DNA of 5,339 bases from a virus (IMGVR_UViG_2548876867_000014); one strand, 5' to 3'; counted from the stretch's first letter, positions 1-5,339 are shown. The notes: generated by a model not told the origin, from the letters alone. Numbers and translations are program-made.

Positions 1-270
<270 letters not shown>

Positions 271-293
271 TTACCGTTAAATCATTTTAAAAT

Positions 294-340
294 CAGTAAG
301 TTGTATCGAGTTTGTATGCTTTACTGTCATTAACTTACTG
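294..340. repeat. 9-bp perfect inverted repeat CAGTAAGTT (294-302) / AACTTACTG (332-340) with iterated TGTAT motifs in the yfhL-int intergenic region
   Basis: Read directly: the arms are exact reverse complements separated by 29 bp. TTGTAT/TGTATG recurs at 301-306, 312-318, 339-344 and 354-358. Function is unknown; possibilities are integrase arm/core sites or an operator. Confidence 0.4.
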
Positions 341-355
341 TATGTTGATCCAGTG
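336..355. promoter_or_regulatory. LexA (SOS) box-like sequence TACTGTATGTTGATCCAGTG
   Basis: CTGT-N8-cCAG, satisfying the CTG-N10-CAG core. The left half TACTGTAT is identical to the E. coli LexA consensus half-site (TACTGTATATATATACAGTA, from memory); the right half matches 6/8. It lies about 75 bp upstream of the yfhL ATG and about 120 bp upstream of the int ATG. Sequence-only call. Confidence 0.25.
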
Positions 356-475
356 TATTTAACCTTGATAAACTCAGTCCAGCAACACAAAACCGCAACA
401 CATTGCATTTTGTCCCGTAGAAAAGACTTGTATGTGTGAGCTTGTTTTCTGCGCCTACGCAGATAAGGATTGAGA

Positions 476-1873
476 ATGCCGCGCACTGTAACACATAATC
501 CGGATAGCCCCAATAATGACGATGTTTTAGCCGCTTCTGAAAAATGGGACGCCTGTAAACCCCCCTATACCAGCGCACACATGAAAATCTGTGTTGCTGC
601 CGCCAAAATCATCCTCGCTGCTTCCGGCGTGGCTCGCCGTTCCAAATACGAAAAAGAGAACTATCTCCGTATCGATTTCAGCAAAGCCGGTAAGGTTACA
701 TTTTACGCCGAGTTTCCAAAAAAGATGGGCCTCAAAGGTAAAAAGCTCGGCGAGTGGCCGGAGCTCGCTATCCAGCTGGCGCGCGAAAAAGCACTAGGTA
801 TGGCTGACGGTGGACTGCGGGCAGAGTCCGTACATGCAGCGCTGGAAATGTACCGGGATGACCTCAAAGCCAAAGTAGCCCGTCAGAAGCTGAGCCCGGA
901 CAGTTTCACAACCTACGGGGTGCGTATCGACCGGATTAAATCAACGTTCGGCGAGCGCGAGGTGTTCGGCGACGTAACATACAGTCGGCTGGTGGAAGTG
1001 CTGGACGAGTGGATCGCCACTCGCTCGAACAATAACGCCCTGGAGTTGTTTGCCGAGCTCCGTCGGTTCTGGAAGTTCTGCGCACCTACTCTTTGCAACG
1101 GCCGCAATGTTGCCGCCAGTCTGCCAGATGATTATGTTTCCTCCCGCGTACAGAAACCTACCCCCACACGGCTTTTTACCGATATTGAATCAATCGCCCG
1201 ACTCTGGCTCAATGTTGCTGCCTGCACCTCTGTACACCAGAAGAATGCTGTTCGCTTCATGATCATCACTGGTGTTCGTCCGATTAATGTCCATAACCTG
1301 CGCTGGGACTACGTTCACGAGGAGGCTGGTGAAATTGTTTATCCGGAAGGGGTTATCGGCATGCGAGGGGCTATGAAAACACAAAAGGCTTTCCGCCTGC
1401 CGATAACGCCTGAGATCCGGCGGATTATCGACGAGCAGAAAGCCTGGCGTGATTCAGTTCCTGAGTGCAACAGGGATTATGTATTTTTGCAGCCACGTGA
1501 TCCAATGCAGCCATTTTCAAAACGATCACTGGATAAGCTGGTGAAAACATACAGCCCGGACGGGGCTGTAAAAGGAATAAAACATGATGGGACTGTTAAA
1601 GGGAAAGACGGTGCATTTAATACGATGTGCCGTAAATTCCTTAAGAGCAATGTTATTGCCTTGATGAAGGAAAGAGGCTATTCCCGCTCAGACCGAAGGG
1701 AAATCAGCCTCCTTTGCCTTCACCACTCCAGCAAGTCAGATGACCCGATGGCAGAACATTACGACTTTTCTGATGAGATTTTACAGGAAGAGATTGCGTT
1801 GAAGCGCGAAGCTTTCGAGGCTCACGAGCGGAGCATACTTGCGCAGGTGGCATTGCTACGGCGGCGAGGTTAA
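476..1873 (+). CDS. int: Tyrosine recombinase / phage integrase, P4-like with N-terminal arm-binding domain
   Basis: Long ORF with ATG at 476 preceded by AAGGA (465-469) and a 6-nt spacer; the ORF track starts at an in-frame TTG at 470. The N-terminal stretch YLRIDFSKAGKVTFYAEF...LGEWPELAIQLAREKA resembles the DUF4102-type arm-binding domain of P4-family integrases. The C-terminal half has recombinase-like segments (ITGVRPINVHNLRW; HHSSKSDDPMAEHYDF with a candidate catalytic Tyr). TAA at 1871-1873. Confidence 0.82.
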   Translation: MPRTVTHNPDSPNNDDVLAASEKWDACKPPYTSAHMKICVAAAKIILAASGVARRSKYEKENYLRIDFSKAGKVTFYAEFPKKMGLKGKKLGEWPELAIQLAREKALGMADGGLRAESVHAALEMYRDDLKAKVARQKLSPDSFTTYGVRIDRIKSTFGEREVFGDVTYSRLVEVLDEWIATRSNNNALELFAELRRFWKFCAPTLCNGRNVAASLPDDYVSSRVQKPTPTRLFTDIESIARLWLNVAACTSVHQKNAVRFMIITGVRPINVHNLRWDYVHEEAGEIVYPEGVIGMRGAMKTQKAFRLPITPEIRRIIDEQKAWRDSVPECNRDYVFLQPRDPMQPFSKRSLDKLVKTYSPDGAVKGIKHDGTVKGKDGAFNTMCRKFLKSNVIALMKERGYSRSDRREISLLCLHHSSKSDDPMAEHYDFSDEILQEEIALKREAFEAHERSILAQVALLRRRG

Positions 1874-2070
1874 TACTGGCTGCGACATTTTTGAATAAAA
1901 GCGTCGACATTTCGGCGCTCATAACGAACTACTTTTGCACTGAAACGAATTGGTGCCAGGATAGCCCGATGACGATGCTTAATATTCAACTCACATAGCG
2001 TTTTCTGTGTAATACCTAACTTTTGGCATACTTCATCCGGGGTGAGTAAATCGTCGGGTTTCTCGCTCAT
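1870..2070 (-). CDS. AlpA/excisionase-family helix-turn-helix protein (putative Xis or small regulator)
   Basis: 66-codon ORF. LLTPDEVCQKLGITQKTL is the HTH typical of AlpA/Xis-type phage proteins. Its ATG (2070..2068) overlaps the helicase TGA (ATGA at 2067-2070), and its TAA (1872..1870) overlaps the integrase TAA (TTAA at 1870-1873). Confidence 0.72.
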   Translation of the reverse strand: MSEKPDDLLTPDEVCQKLGITQKTLCELNIKHRHRAILAPIRFSAKVVRYERRNVDAFIQKCRSQY

Positions 2071-3458
2071 GCTATACCTCTCTTTTTCATGGCATCGAGC
2101 AGGATGTCCTGCACTGTTCGTTTTGAGTTGCGCCGCTCCATCACCATTTCGTCCATAGTGTCGGCAGCAATAATGTGGTGAATAAATACCGGACGATTGT
2201 GTCCGGCCTGTATCTGTCTGGTTGGGCCGATACGTTCAATAATTTGCTGATATTGCTCCAGGTCCCACCAGTGTGAGAAAAATACCAGTATATTTCCGCC
2301 GTCCTGCATGTTCAGGCCGTGGCCCGCGCTGGCTGGGTGTGCAAAGAGAACAGGAATCTTTCCGGAATTCCAGTCGCGCAGTGTCTGTGGAGCCTGGTCG
2401 AGGTGACGACCGCGAGGGAATGCTTTAAGCAAGCGTTCAAGATCGTGTTTCCAGTGATAAGCAACCAGCACAGGTGCGCCAGCTGCTTCGGTCAGTATGC
2501 TGTCCAGCGCCTGTAGTTTGGTGTCATGCAGTTCTGACCAACTTCCGGTGTCATCTGTGTATACTGCGCCGCTGGCGATTTGCAGACACTTCAGTGTCTT
2601 TGCCGCGGCGTTCGGTGCTTCGATGCCTTCGCCATTCAGCTCGAGGAACATTTCCTTTTCCATTTCACGATACTGCTGACGGGCCTTCGGCGGCATATCC
2701 ACGCGGATTACGTTATGGATGGGGTCTTTGATATCGAACCAGTCGGCCGCATCCAGCGAGAGGGTCACATCGGCTAACGCTCGCTGTATTTCACCCTGTG
2801 AGTGAGCAAAAGGCTCCAGTTTGGTCCAGCTCTGCCCCGGAAACTGTATCGATTTGAACCAGCGTGAGGTAAACGCGCCGTAAGTGCGCCCGAGACGTTG
2901 CCCCTGGTCCACAAACCACGATTGTCCCCACAAATCTACCAGGCCGTTCGGTGCTGGCGTACCGGTGAGATTTATCCAGCGCCGGACATACTTGTGCGCC
3001 ACTTTGCCCAGCGCCGCCGCGCGCTTACCACCACCTCGCAGCCGGAAGGATTTTAGCCGGGTGCTTTCATCTGGAATGACAGTACCGAACGACCATCGTT
3101 CTCCCAATTCTTCAACCAGCCAGACAAGGTTATCGTAGTTGATTGTGAACACGCTCGCGTTGCTGTTCGCCAGCGCTGTAGAGCGCGCTTTGGCGTTACC
3201 GATGATCGGCTGTACCTCAATATTACGCAGATGCCCCCATTTAACAGCTTCATCAGGCCAAGTGCTTGCTGCAACGCGTAGCGGCGCGAGGACCAGCGCG
3301 GGGCGTGTTTCTGCTCCAGCCATGAAAAGATCTTCCAGCGTGGTGAGTGTCGCTACGGTTTTACCCATCCCCATCCCTGCCCAGATGTTGCCGCGCAGGG
3401 TCTCGATTTGATGATTGATGATGAGATCTTGGTAGGGACGTGGTTTAAAAGTTATCAT
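2067..3458 (-). CDS. SNF2/RAD54-family DNA helicase/ATPase (phage replication-recombination module)
   Basis: 463-codon ORF with ordered motifs: RPYQ (Q motif, residues 7-10), GMGKT (Walker A), DEST (motif II, DExx), LTGTPAPN (motif III), and a C-terminal lobe with QQIIERIGPTRQ (motif VI-like). Start ATG at 3458 is preceded by AGGGA about 8 nt upstream on the - strand. Confidence 0.85.
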   Translation of the reverse strand: MITFKPRPYQDLIINHQIETLRGNIWAGMGMGKTVATLTTLEDLFMAGAETRPALVLAPLRVAASTWPDEAVKWGHLRNIEVQPIIGNAKARSTALANSNASVFTINYDNLVWLVEELGERWSFGTVIPDESTRLKSFRLRGGGKRAAALGKVAHKYVRRWINLTGTPAPNGLVDLWGQSWFVDQGQRLGRTYGAFTSRWFKSIQFPGQSWTKLEPFAHSQGEIQRALADVTLSLDAADWFDIKDPIHNVIRVDMPPKARQQYREMEKEMFLELNGEGIEAPNAAAKTLKCLQIASGAVYTDDTGSWSELHDTKLQALDSILTEAAGAPVLVAYHWKHDLERLLKAFPRGRHLDQAPQTLRDWNSGKIPVLFAHPASAGHGLNMQDGGNILVFFSHWWDLEQYQQIIERIGPTRQIQAGHNRPVFIHHIIAADTMDEMVMERRNSKRTVQDILLDAMKKRGIA

Positions 3459-3481
3459 GAAGAAAATCCCTGATTAGAAAG

Positions 3482-4207
3482 GTGCTCTTGAACATCATGA
3501 ATGTAAAAGATTTATCAATTACAACGGTTCTCTTGGCCGCCCTTTATTTTATGGCTTTTTCTTTTTACAAAGGGTACAGCTCATTTTATGGATTCCCTGT
3601 AAGTTTTATTTCTATTGGGATTGAGGAAATAGTTAAATTTTCTGTTATTGCATTAGGACTTTTGTGCACCTTAGTCGCTTTGCTGCATATTGATACTGAA
3701 GAGAAGAATATTCCATGGTGGGTGTATTTATTTTTCTTCATTTTGGCCTCTTTGCTTTCATACTGGACAATGTATTTATATGGCGGTAGCTCATACCTTT
3801 ATGAAAAATCCATAAGGGATGTGGCTACCCAAGCAATACTGTTGGGATTTATTAGCCCTATCAGTGTCAGGGCAGTATCTGTTTTTATTAGGAATGAATT
3901 TAGAATAAAAAACAAAACTCATGGGGTTATGCTTTTTATATCCATAGCAATGCTTCCTTCAGTCCTTGGGTGGGCATGGGCATACTTATCAGATGAGCCT
4001 CTTTTTTATTCTAAAAAATATGATGCTTATATTATCGAAAGCTATAACGGAAAATTTGTCTTGGGGAACTGTAAAAAAAATAGCTCTGAATTTATGAGTG
4101 TCGAAGGAATTGAGGGGAAATTAATTCCTGTAAGCATAAAAGAAACACAACAACTAAAAGTATGTTTTTTAAAAGCTTCTAAGCTCAAGAAAAATCGCTC
4201 AGAATGA
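3482..4207 (+). CDS. Hypothetical multi-pass membrane protein, AT-rich moron; no recognisable catalytic motif
   Basis: ORF on the strand opposite to all flanking phage genes. Start is GTG 3482 or more likely ATG 3497 (MNVKDL...). Hand counts of sample 60-nt stretches give about one-third G+C (3541-3600), against about 65% in a helicase sample (3001-3060). About five hydrophobic segments: LSITTVLLAALYFMAFSFY, FSVIALGLLCTLVALLHI, IPWWVYLFFFILASLLSYWTMYLY, AILLGFISPISVRAVSVFI, GVMLFISIAMLPSVLGWAWAYL. These are followed by a roughly 70-aa hydrophilic, Lys-rich C-terminal region. Stop TGA at 4205-4207, 5 bp from the convergent VRR-NUC stop. Confidence 0.6.
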   Translation: MLLNIMNVKDLSITTVLLAALYFMAFSFYKGYSSFYGFPVSFISIGIEEIVKFSVIALGLLCTLVALLHIDTEEKNIPWWVYLFFFILASLLSYWTMYLYGGSSYLYEKSIRDVATQAILLGFISPISVRAVSVFIRNEFRIKNKTHGVMLFISIAMLPSVLGWAWAYLSDEPLFYSKKYDAYIIESYNGKFVLGNCKKNSSEFMSVEGIEGKLIPVSIKETQQLKVCFLKASKLKKNRSE

Positions 4208-4212
4208 TTGTC

Positions 4213-4482
4213 TCACAATATCCCCTCTAAATTTTTGCTATCCAGCACCACCACGGTAAAGCCCAGTTTTCGCAGACGTTCATGTTCGCGCAACTGGTCA
4301 GGCCGTGGTGGCTTGCCGGGAGATTTACATTCAACGAAAACGATACGACCGCCTGGTAGCAGGACAATGCGATCCGGTACCGAGCGGTGACCGGGAGATA
4401 CAAACTTAAAGGCCACTCCGCCAGCTTTTTTCACTTCAGCGACGAGGTGCTTTTCGATAAGGCTTTCACGTTCATAGGCCAT
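4213..4482 (-). CDS. VRR-NUC domain nuclease (PD-(D/E)xK superfamily)
   Basis: Signature SVPDRIVLL...IVFVECK (PD...E-x-K) followed by QLREHERLRKLGFTVVV, typical of VRR-NUC proteins. Start taken as ATG 4482 (MAYERE...), which overlaps the end of the upstream gene by 11 nt; an alternative in-frame ATG lies at 4509. Stop TGA at 4215..4213. Confidence 0.8.
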   Translation of the reverse strand: MAYERESLIEKHLVAEVKKAGGVAFKFVSPGHRSVPDRIVLLPGGRIVFVECKSPGKPPRPDQLREHERLRKLGFTVVVLDSKNLEGIL

Positions 4483-4771
4483 CTGAATCCCACTCTTCAA
4501 AAAGCACATTCAATTCCAGTTTCTCTGCCAACGCGTTTTCTGCACGTGCGCCAGCAGAGTACTCCCACTCTTTGAGCATATAAATCGTATCGGCACAGCG
4601 AAGCATTGCGAGGCAGATGTCCATGTACTGAGCCTGTGTCAAACCATTGGGTAAAGTTGCGGGGTTAAGCACAACATATCCCTTGTCCGTTAGCCTTTTT
4701 GCTGCGGAATGAAAGGCCGGGCGGTTAAATTGCTCGTAACCGCTCATCGGCCCGGCAACGTAAACGATCAT
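4472..4771 (-). CDS. DUF4406-like protein (nucleoside 2-deoxyribosyltransferase-like fold)
   Basis: 99-codon ORF. The N-terminus MIVYVAGPMSGYEQFNRPAF and overall size resemble DUF4406 proteins that I recall from phage genomes (memory-based, not searched). Its ATG overlaps the stop of the upstream ORF (ATGA at 4768-4771). Confidence 0.65.
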   Translation of the reverse strand: MIVYVAGPMSGYEQFNRPAFHSAAKRLTDKGYVVLNPATLPNGLTQAQYMDICLAMLRCADTIYMLKEWEYSAGARAENALAEKLELNVLFEEWDSDGL

Positions 4772-4983
4772 TCTTCGACCGCCTTACGCTTTTCACGCAT
4801 GTTCTGCATCAGGCAAAAATCAGATCTGCGTTCACTCCATTCCTGATTCAGTTCGTGATGTGATTCGCGGTTGGCTTTTGCCCAGACCTCCGCTGCCCGG
4901 TCATATTCGCCGGATTGTTCAAGTCGCAAAGCTTCCCTTGCAGCCCTGTAATAAAGTGGATTGTCCCGGTATTTAAATGACAT
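4768..4983 (-). CDS. Small hypothetical protein, tentatively ANR-family (AraC-negative-regulator, Aar-like)
   Basis: 71-codon ORF. The pattern A..EALRLEQSGEY..AAEVWAKA...N.EW..RR.DFC resembles small ANR-family proteins as I recall them. AAGGA lies 9 nt upstream of the ATG on the - strand. It is translationally coupled to the downstream gene. Family assignment is tentative. Confidence 0.5.
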   Translation of the reverse strand: MSFKYRDNPLYYRAAREALRLEQSGEYDRAAEVWAKANRESHHELNQEWSERRSDFCLMQNMREKRKAVEE

Positions 4984-4988
4984 AGGAG

Positions 4989-5339
4989 TTAATCCTTACG
5001 GTAGTGGTACGCCTCAAAACCGCCAGCGTTCAGTGGGATATCGGGCGCCCATTCGGGGTTAGTGGAGAGAAGTGCGGAAAGCGCTTTATCGTTGAAATCT
5101 TCTGTGTCAGGTGCTTCGGTGATCACCTCGTCGTGTACCGTCAGCACAATGCTGTAACCGGCATCTTCGATAAGCGGCATGTTTCCGGCCAGAATGTCGC
5201 GGGCGGCCGCCTGGGTGATGTTCTCCACCAGCTTTCCGCCGTAGGTTTTGAGTCGTTGCCATTTACGCGAATAAGAGTTAACCCCTAGACTGGCCCCCTG
5301 AATCTCCAGACAACCAGTATCACTTAAATAAGTGATAGT
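4989..5339 (-). CDS. Family-A DNA polymerase, C-terminal fragment (N-terminus lies beyond the window edge)
   Basis: The - strand frame is open from 5339 with no stop until TAA at 4991..4989, so the GTG at 5228 in the ORF track is probably internal. The C-terminus [11 protein letters not shown]...[15 protein letters not shown]...[17 protein letters not shown] aligns by eye with E. coli Pol I (recalled from memory: QGTAADIIK...MIMQVHDELVFE...DVPLLVEVGSGENWDQAH), including the motif C HDE. Confidence 0.62.

Follow-up and report, generated by a model that had tools for sequence, protein, structure and literature searches.

The stretch of viral DNA studied here (IMGVR_UViG_2548876867_000014; 5,339 nucleotides, referred to as the window) carries on its - strand a chain of leftward genes, at 1870-5339, that a first-pass annotation had described as a tightly coupled operon of polymerase, ANR-like, DUF4406, VRR-NUC, SNF2 helicase and Xis-like genes with overlapping start and stop codons. 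Gene families were assigned by Pfam, PHROGs and NCBIfam, in agreement with the PGAP annotation of near-identical prophages, and the gene identities given earlier hold by these matches. At least 80% of the window is covered in 77 genomes of our collection of 5426 complete E. coli genomes, the top match being O26 strain 97-3250 (99.2% identical). The genes and junctions of the chain are listed below from right to left.

5286..5339, + strand: left terminus of IS2, whose transposase would read rightwards, antisense to the operon (multicopy in E. coli; adjoins an annotated IS2 transposase elsewhere)
4989..5285, - strand: last 98 codons, a 3' remnant, of a gene for a family-A DNA polymerase (PHROG 7766, E 8e-48; gene intact in relatives)
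4984..4988, - strand: CTCCT, a gap of 5 nt that separates the polymerase TAA from the ANR ATG, read from the sequence (4 nt in YeP4)
4768..4983, - strand: ANR-family small regulator, 71 aa, accessory cargo (NCBIfam NF033650; weak PerC match)
4768..4771, - strand: ATGA overlap (TCAT on the + strand) of the ANR stop and the DUF4406 start, read from the sequence (Shine-Dalgarno (SD) dG -8.3)
4472..4771, - strand: DUF4406 protein, 99 aa, nucleoside 2-deoxyribosyltransferase-like, accessory cargo (Pfam DUF4406, 116.7 bits; PHROG 355)
4472..4482, - strand: 11-nt overlap ATGGCCTATGA from the VRR-NUC start to the DUF4406 stop, the stop lying within VRR-NUC codons 3-4, read from the sequence
4213..4482, - strand: VRR-NUC nuclease, 89 aa, core gene (PHROG 93 endonuclease, E 1.5e-31; PGAP start; MAYERE N-terminus)
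2067..3458, - strand: SNF2-family helicase, 463 aa, core replication-module gene (SNF2-rel_dom, 45 bits; PHROG 62, E 9e-157)
2067..2070, - strand: ATGA overlap (TCAT on the + strand) of the SNF2 stop TGA and the xis start ATG, read from the sequence and identical in all close relatives
1870..2070, - strand: Xis-like helix-turn-helix protein, 66 aa, final gene of the leftward operon (HTH_17, PHROG 4745, PHROG 66; adjoins int)

The leftward chain and its interruption by IS2

Reading of the sequence confirms all four of the junctions claimed at 4768-4771, 2067-2070, 4472-4482 and 4984-4988. A VRR-NUC start downstream of 4472, which would remove the 11-nt overlap, does not occur: the PGAP start in relatives is the equivalent of 4482, and the N-terminus M-(A/S/I)-Y-E-R-E (ATG-x-TAT-GAA-CGT-GAA) is kept in the relatives L002, L003, L005 and L006 despite unrelated upstream DNA. 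The match to Pfam VRR_NUC (19.5 bits) lies below the 23.8 cut-off; relatives are named VRR-NUC by PGAP, and the translation holds a D...ExK motif (PDRIV...FVECK). A longer VRR-NUC open reading frame (ORF) from 4509 was rejected: its extra nine codons exist only with DUF4406 upstream, its SD (-3.3) is the weaker one, and PGAP starts the gene at 4482. The 4509 start is a by-product of the DUF4406 reading frame, and the VRR-NUC start is settled at 4482. The ANR (AraC negative regulator) family is assigned by sequence through model NF033650 (ANR_neg_reg; 70.1 bits against a cut-off of 32), and the Xis-like protein matches PHROG 4745 (E 2.5e-24) and the PHROG 66 excisionase (E 9e-5), with an HTH_17 score of 24.9 bits, just below cut-off.

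These overlaps are the usual gene packing of a phage early operon, real but ordinary. Among 45 same-strand junctions of the 97-3250 prophage, 28 fall within -20..+6 nt, 20 overlap and five are exactly -4; the corresponding counts are 25, 19 and 13 among the 45 of BPP-1, whose homologous stretch holds a run of five successive -4 overlaps, and 16, 8 and 3 among the 30 of YeP4. Under a 62% baseline, four tight junctions in four would be expected ~15% of the time. For the E. coli chromosome, spacings of -8..+6 nt account for 24% of unidirectional pairs, with -4 as the commonest class (PMC10666635). Tightness in the window is mildly enriched compared with the E. coli chromosome, but no more than the phage baseline. 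The -11 overlap at 4472-4482 belongs to a less common class than -4, -1 or a gap of a few nucleotides. As a discovery, the packing has little significance, overlapping start and stop codons and gap-free chains being the default in phage early operons.

Comparison with related phages provides the frame for the chain. Its conserved backbone (polymerase - VRR-NUC - SNF2 - xis/int) has homologues in the same order in Bordetella phage BPP-1, Hamiltonella phage APSE (APSE-1), the Yersinia phages YeP4-6 and the Escherichia phages vB_EcoM-689R2/611R5/606R2, and the 'module 1' synteny of such phages has already been described (PMC8579659); the series of homologous proteins that defines it, polymerase, VRR-NUC, SNF2/DEAD helicase, xis and int, is found here. 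The chain is an early operon of a known kind, already described for BPP-1, APSE and YeP4. Module 1 of the BPP-1/APSE/YeP4/Xfas53/Bcep type (int, xis, DEAD-box/SNF2 helicase, nuclease, DNA polymerase I) and the window agree in order and orientation, from polymerase through small genes, VRR-NUC nuclease, a variable interval and helicase to xis. Protein identities to the window reach 65-74% for the helicase (BPP-1 Bbp47, APSE P41 and the YeP4 helicase), 52-73% for the nuclease and 67-77% for the polymerase C-terminus. YeP4 shares in addition the short gap (4 against 5 nt) and the 11-nt overlap, and its variable interval likewise holds a membrane-protein gene on the opposite strand. The window differs from these phages in its cargo (ANR, DUF4406 and a 236-aa membrane protein) and in the IS2 within the polymerase gene; its int is convergent, whereas that of BPP-1 and APSE is co-oriented, and the late genes of its E. 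coli relative are myovirus-like (baseplate J/gp47) and not podovirus-like. The synteny check proposed in the first-pass annotation thus finds the backbone order kept, and ANR/DUF4406 and the opposite-strand gene swapped between relatives.

The intact relative 97-3250 (L091) indicates what lies upstream. There the leftward genes begin 633 nt below a LexA-like repressor gene and end at xis, in the order two small genes, DUF2800 nuclease, DUF2815 single-stranded-DNA-binding protein, Nmad5, polymerase, ANR, DUF4406, VRR-NUC, SNF2 and xis, over ~9.5 kb that include two opposite-strand genes; the rightward arm holds a cro-like gene, a VapE primase/helicase, a Q antiterminator, lysis genes and structural genes. 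By this comparison, the early-left operon of a temperate E. coli prophage beside yfhL is represented in the window, at 1870-5285, by its promoter-distal third.

We regard it as highly probable that the locus is an ordinary operon of this type, with a module-1 backbone and two cargo slots, seen here in its promoter-distal part and in an IS2-interrupted copy. In the intact state, the operon would run from just below the LexA-like repressor gene via DUF2800, DUF2815, Nmad5 and the polymerase to xis, with the genes at 1870-5285 most likely on a single leftward transcript. Each downstream gene would probably be translated by a mixture of ribosomes that re-initiate at the overlap and ribosomes that start afresh on its own SD. 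The packing (-4, -11, -4 and +5 nt) would come from compact, cassette-wise genome construction, and no requirement for set subunit ratios would lie behind it. SNF2 and xis would most likely be expressed by read-through over a 754-nt antisense stretch, and the membrane protein encoded on the opposite strand of that stretch would most plausibly be made in the lysogen, while the leftward operon is repressed. The IS2 at 5286 would then kill the polymerase and distance the downstream genes from their promoter by at least one IS2 length.

The opposite-strand gene had been taken for the only break in the chain, and this is wrong, as IS2 also interrupts it, within the polymerase gene at 5286. The intact polymerase gene of relatives encodes 687 aa (2064 nt), and its homology to the window ends at 5286. 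In another genome, the sequence of 5286-5339 recurs unchanged as an end that is followed, after 90 nt and on the same strand, by an annotated IS2 transposase. E. coli genomes have up to 41 copies of it each, both chromosomal and plasmid-borne; the assignment to IS2 (IS3 family) is made from this terminal sequence, the transposase falling outside the window. The polymerase/IS2 junction was absent from all 5426 complete E. coli genomes. The insertion disrupts the polymerase gene and cuts the leftward chain from its upstream part. Coupling at the polymerase/ANR junction is thereby moot, and since the polymerase would be destroyed and the downstream genes separated from their normal promoter, the prophage is probably replication-defective. 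In annotation, the 'polymerase' of the window is best entered as a pseudogene disrupted by IS2, and the whole prophage marked as probably defective.

A silent relic is the alternative that fares best, and we give it a little under even chances. Here IS2 has disconnected the operon from its promoter and killed the polymerase, and the junctions are inherited anatomy without current function; for the ancestral state this is compatible with the operon reading given above. The position of the IS2 terminus inside the polymerase gene speaks for it, as does the lack of any promoter-like site on the - strand from 5285 to 4213, and the frameshift that the cargo gene has already suffered in O26 97-3250 indicates that decay occurs in the prophage family. 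On the other hand, every downstream ORF of the window is intact, with 94-100% identity to its counterpart in intact relatives. IS2 may therefore have arrived recently, or transcription that crosses or leaves IS2 may still express the genes.

The opposite-strand gene and transcription across its slot

The interval between VRR-NUC and SNF2 contains two features.

3497..4207, + strand: membrane-protein gene, 236 aa, 34% GC, family not assigned, cargo of the VRR-NUC/SNF2 slot (GC profile; slot position)
3459..3496, between the strands: divergent spacer of 38 nt separating the SNF2 start from the membrane-protein gene start, read from the sequence (38 nt also in L092 and L093)

The stop of the membrane-protein gene is 5 nt from that of VRR-NUC. 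GC content falls to 30-39% across 3401-4200, compared with 52-59% in the flanking genes, and of the 159 E. coli genomes (among 5426) that carry the SNF2 helicase, only 22 carry the gene. Morons of temperate phages (Hendrix) and the P2/P4 hotspots hold alternative accessory genes, often low in GC and often on the opposite strand, at a fixed position between conserved genes. The window gene resembles them in its distinct base composition and in its presence or absence between conserved genes; it differs in that no flanking promoter/terminator pair is demonstrated for it and that none of the known defence or exclusion families matches it (PADLOC). The slot as a whole, from the VRR-NUC stop to the SNF2 start, holds at least eight alternative contents of 357 to 2055 nt among the relatives fetched (loci compared include L005, L006, L012, L017, L021, L023, L025 and L026). 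Among them are three unrelated opposite-strand membrane proteins (the window type, the L026 type and the YeP4 type), antirepressor-like (Ant-like) genes, a Dcm methyltransferase whose partner lies on the opposite strand, a TIR-like protein and a two-gene opposite-strand cassette. Homology breaks at the slot within the final ~5 codons of VRR-NUC and the first ~4 codons of SNF2. The VRR-NUC/SNF2 junction is a hypervariable cargo hotspot and a place to look for lysogenic-conversion or defence genes.

The 236-aa protein itself has no Pfam, PHROG, NCBIfam or PADLOC match, and each of its 18 homologues is unnamed or labelled 'membrane protein'. An AlphaFold2 (AF2) model (predicted local distance difference test score, pLDDT, 83.7) presents five long hydrophobic, transmembrane helices and a small beta domain; comparison of this fold gave no informative match. 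Two cysteines of the protein are invariant. Homologues 67% (Salmonella) and 48% (metagenomes) identical occupy the same slot, and neither their orientation nor the 38-nt length of the divergent spacer differs from the window; the prophages with these diverged homologues have a different integrase and attachment site and flanking SNF2 and VRR-NUC proteins that are 89-94% identical. Because diverged homologues hold the same slot and orientation, the gene is an old, fast-evolving resident and not a fresh insertion; a search for flanking repeats, which would have pointed to transposition, found none. In O26 97-3250 (L091, 3497-4084), a 1-nt insertion frameshifts the gene and cuts its product to 195 aa. 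The protein may represent an uncharacterised, fast-evolving family of prophage membrane proteins with a stable place in one cargo hotspot of BPP-1/APSE-type replication modules in Enterobacteria. It might serve the lysogen as a new factor of superinfection exclusion or defence, and its antisense position within the early operon would then make its expression and lytic early transcription mutually exclusive; we offer this as a tentative and rather doubtful proposal.

A promoter-like site facing the membrane-protein gene on the + strand (TTGGTA-18-TATCAT, 3429-3458, 9/12 matches) lies within the coding and start sequence of SNF2, its -10 hexamer containing the complement of the SNF2 start codon; the site recurs in the Salmonella relative L092 (4933-4962), and its spacing is lost in L093. 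The sole terminator-like hairpin on the + strand is weak and is placed 225 nt downstream of the gene, inside VRR-NUC (4432-4449).

For the leftward direction, terminators between each gene pair would have spoken against a single operon, and no intrinsic terminator is predicted between co-oriented genes in the window. After VRR-NUC the - strand has neither a stable hairpin (z +0.47) nor a terminator-like site in the slot. The first-pass annotation had left it that the helicase may depend on read-through or on a promoter inside the insert. The membrane-protein gene contains a single leftward promoter-like site (4104->4077, - strand, 9/12 matches); under the same criteria, no such site occurs in the diverged alleles L092 and L093, and the window holds six promoter-like sites against a shuffled expectation of 6.9 +/- 3.0. 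Read-through is weakly favoured over this internal site, which is at chance level and not conserved; in the present copy, IS2 makes the matter secondary. Relatives with other cargo point the same way. In L005 (vB_EcoM-689R2), a 15-bp hairpin (-23 kcal/mol, z -4.9) stands ~16 nt upstream of the SNF2 start, and strong hairpins in other cargo variants occur only ~16-25 nt before the SNF2 or ANR start. This distance is too short for a promoter, which suggests that early-left transcription reads through such signals; the 689R2 hairpin implies terminator-resistant early transcription or post-transcriptional processing in the phage group.

Several points weigh against the operon reading. Co-transcription and coupling are deduced from geometry alone, and consensus sigma-70 scans are weak evidence in either direction. 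The window ends inside IS2, so that the right-hand remainder of the polymerase gene and of the operon lies outside the view. The 754-nt slot RNA in the operon sense would be untranslated (its longest sense ORF is 51 aa) and is slightly richer in C than in G (19.4% vs 15.1%); Rho could therefore terminate there, and SNF2 and xis might then need a promoter of their own or an antiterminator.

In another reading there would be two transcription units, one from the polymerase to VRR-NUC that stops at the cargo slot, and another, SNF2-xis, that starts from a leftward promoter in or at the edge of the opposite-strand gene. The AT-rich slot RNA as a possible Rho target and the - strand site at 4104->4077 would suit this arrangement, and the hairpins before SNF2 (689R2) or ANR in variants suggest that the operon is punctuated in at least some relatives. 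But the 9/12 site has the weaknesses given above, no promoter can fit into the ~16-25 nt between the variant hairpins and the SNF2 ATG, which favours terminator-resistant read-through, and VRR-NUC of the window is followed by no terminator or stable hairpin. We consider two units unlikely, and the single early-left operon retains our preference.

Exchangeable cargo, coupling and stoichiometry

The interval between polymerase and VRR-NUC, compared across L002, L003, L005, L010, L012, L015, L092 and L093, is variable too. The DUF4406 gene is absent in L002, L003, L005, L006 and L092-95, and ANR together with DUF4406 is absent or replaced in L002, L003, L005, L092 and L093-95. In their place strain A4 has an opposite-strand gene for an ATP-binding protein, O55:H7 has YfbU and a hypothetical protein, 689R2 has a TIR-like protein and small ORFs, and the Salmonella and metagenomic relatives have other small genes. 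The variants with swapped cargo are again tight, with junctions of -1, -4, -8 or a few nucleotides. The interval is a second variable slot, in which ANR and DUF4406 are interchangeable cargo and not parts of a replication machine. Some variants carry inserts of 0.2-1.3 kb between polymerase and ANR, with a terminator-like hairpin at the insert end. The ANR-family gene belongs to a prophage that occurs in O26, O111 and O55:H7 lineages.

DUF4406 homologues with 62-72% identity (loci L027-L088) occur in 50 distinct other phage contexts with no other window gene nearby. In 49 of the 50, the overlap between their start and the upstream ORF is 4 or 1 nt, and in 38 of the 50 their stop runs 4 nt into the next ORF, counts that come from an ORF-based heuristic over loci not all independent, with upstream ORFs of 66 to 818 codons. 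YeP4 has the same 11-nt overlap onto VRR-NUC, though the upstream gene there is ANR and not DUF4406. Because DUF4406 overlaps whatever neighbour it has, and because YeP4 keeps the 11-nt overlap with ANR, the tight overlap would reflect the stitching of cassettes into phage operons and not particular gene partnerships.

The geometry nevertheless bears on translation. The two -4 overlaps and the +5 gap are of the kind found in coupled pairs, and the anti-SD duplex energies of the downstream genes are -5.9 (ANR), -8.3 (DUF4406), -5.1 (VRR-NUC) and -9.1 kcal/mol (xis), each inside the upstream gene, against a background in which 20% of positions reach -4 kcal/mol or better. Of the native E. coli -4 pairs tested, 4/5 are translationally coupled (PMC6728339), and termination-reinitiation coupling fades within ~20 nt of spacing (PMC6728339, PMC10666635). 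The window resembles the coupled pairs of Huber et al. 2019, 2023, in that an ATGA (-4) overlap with the SD in the upstream gene is the class coupled in 4/5 E. coli pairs and that a 5-nt gap is still within re-initiation range; it differs in its rarer 11-nt overlap and in having products that are not known complex subunits. Sequestration of start sites by mRNA structure was not found at the junctions, the unpaired probability (-15..+5) being 0.34-0.60 against a background of 0.47 +/- 0.13; independent initiation is therefore also possible. Given the gap-free chain, the lack of predicted terminators, the SD matches and the experiments on E. coli -4 pairs, co-transcription and some coupling are reasonable, and some termination-reinitiation at the junctions is likely. 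To this extent the claim of translational coupling finds support in geometry and SD matches, and the unsequestered starts allow initiation without it.

The further claim, of fixed stoichiometry, is not supported, since ANR and DUF4406 are swappable cargo whose replacement or absence leaves the junctions tight, and the same partners do not stay adjacent across relatives. That the overlaps enforce obligate coupling of polymerase, ANR, DUF4406, VRR-NUC, SNF2 and Xis in fixed ratios, as subunits of one machine, is very improbable: the window overlaps are kept among close relatives, but the partners vary (in L002, L003, L005, L092 and L093), the YeP4 overlap and the 49/50 DUF4406 contexts involve other neighbours, the starts have their own unsequestered SD, and tightness is equal phage-wide.

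Prophage border and the lambda pL operon

To the left of the chain lie the following features.

1870..1873, both strands: TTAA, the stop codons of the convergent int and xis genes in common, read from the sequence
476..1873, + strand: tyrosine integrase, convergent with the leftward operon (Phage_integrase, 30.4 bits; PHROG 1, E 2e-26; PGAP start in relatives)
1..261, - strand: yfhL (4Fe-4S ferredoxin), the host gene at the left border of the prophage insertion (Pfam Fer4 families; yfhL annotation in relatives)

The locus yfhL is documented for prophage insertion (PMC3603311, PMC12029490), and prophage sequence starts at ~262, to the right of the gene. Rfam gave no match at E <= 1 across the entire window. 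A 4-nt overlap of convergent stops recurs in the Salmonella relative L092, there with an unrelated int/AlpA pair.

In its general plan the operon calls to mind the pL operon of lambda, a long leftward early transcript that begins beside the repressor gene, carries recombination and accessory genes and ends with xis by int and the attachment site. Both are leftward and early, start by a repressor gene, have xis last and would depend on read-through of internal stop signals. Unlike lambda, the window has no identified homologue of N or nut, places polymerase and helicase on the left arm and has int on the opposite strand; the two have no sequence homology.

A U-tract hairpin on the - strand (1550-1570; dG -13.4, z -3.1) is found inside int, ~300 nt past the shared TTAA. 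The leftward operon runs toward it, and leftward transcripts would therefore be antisense to the 3' end of int.

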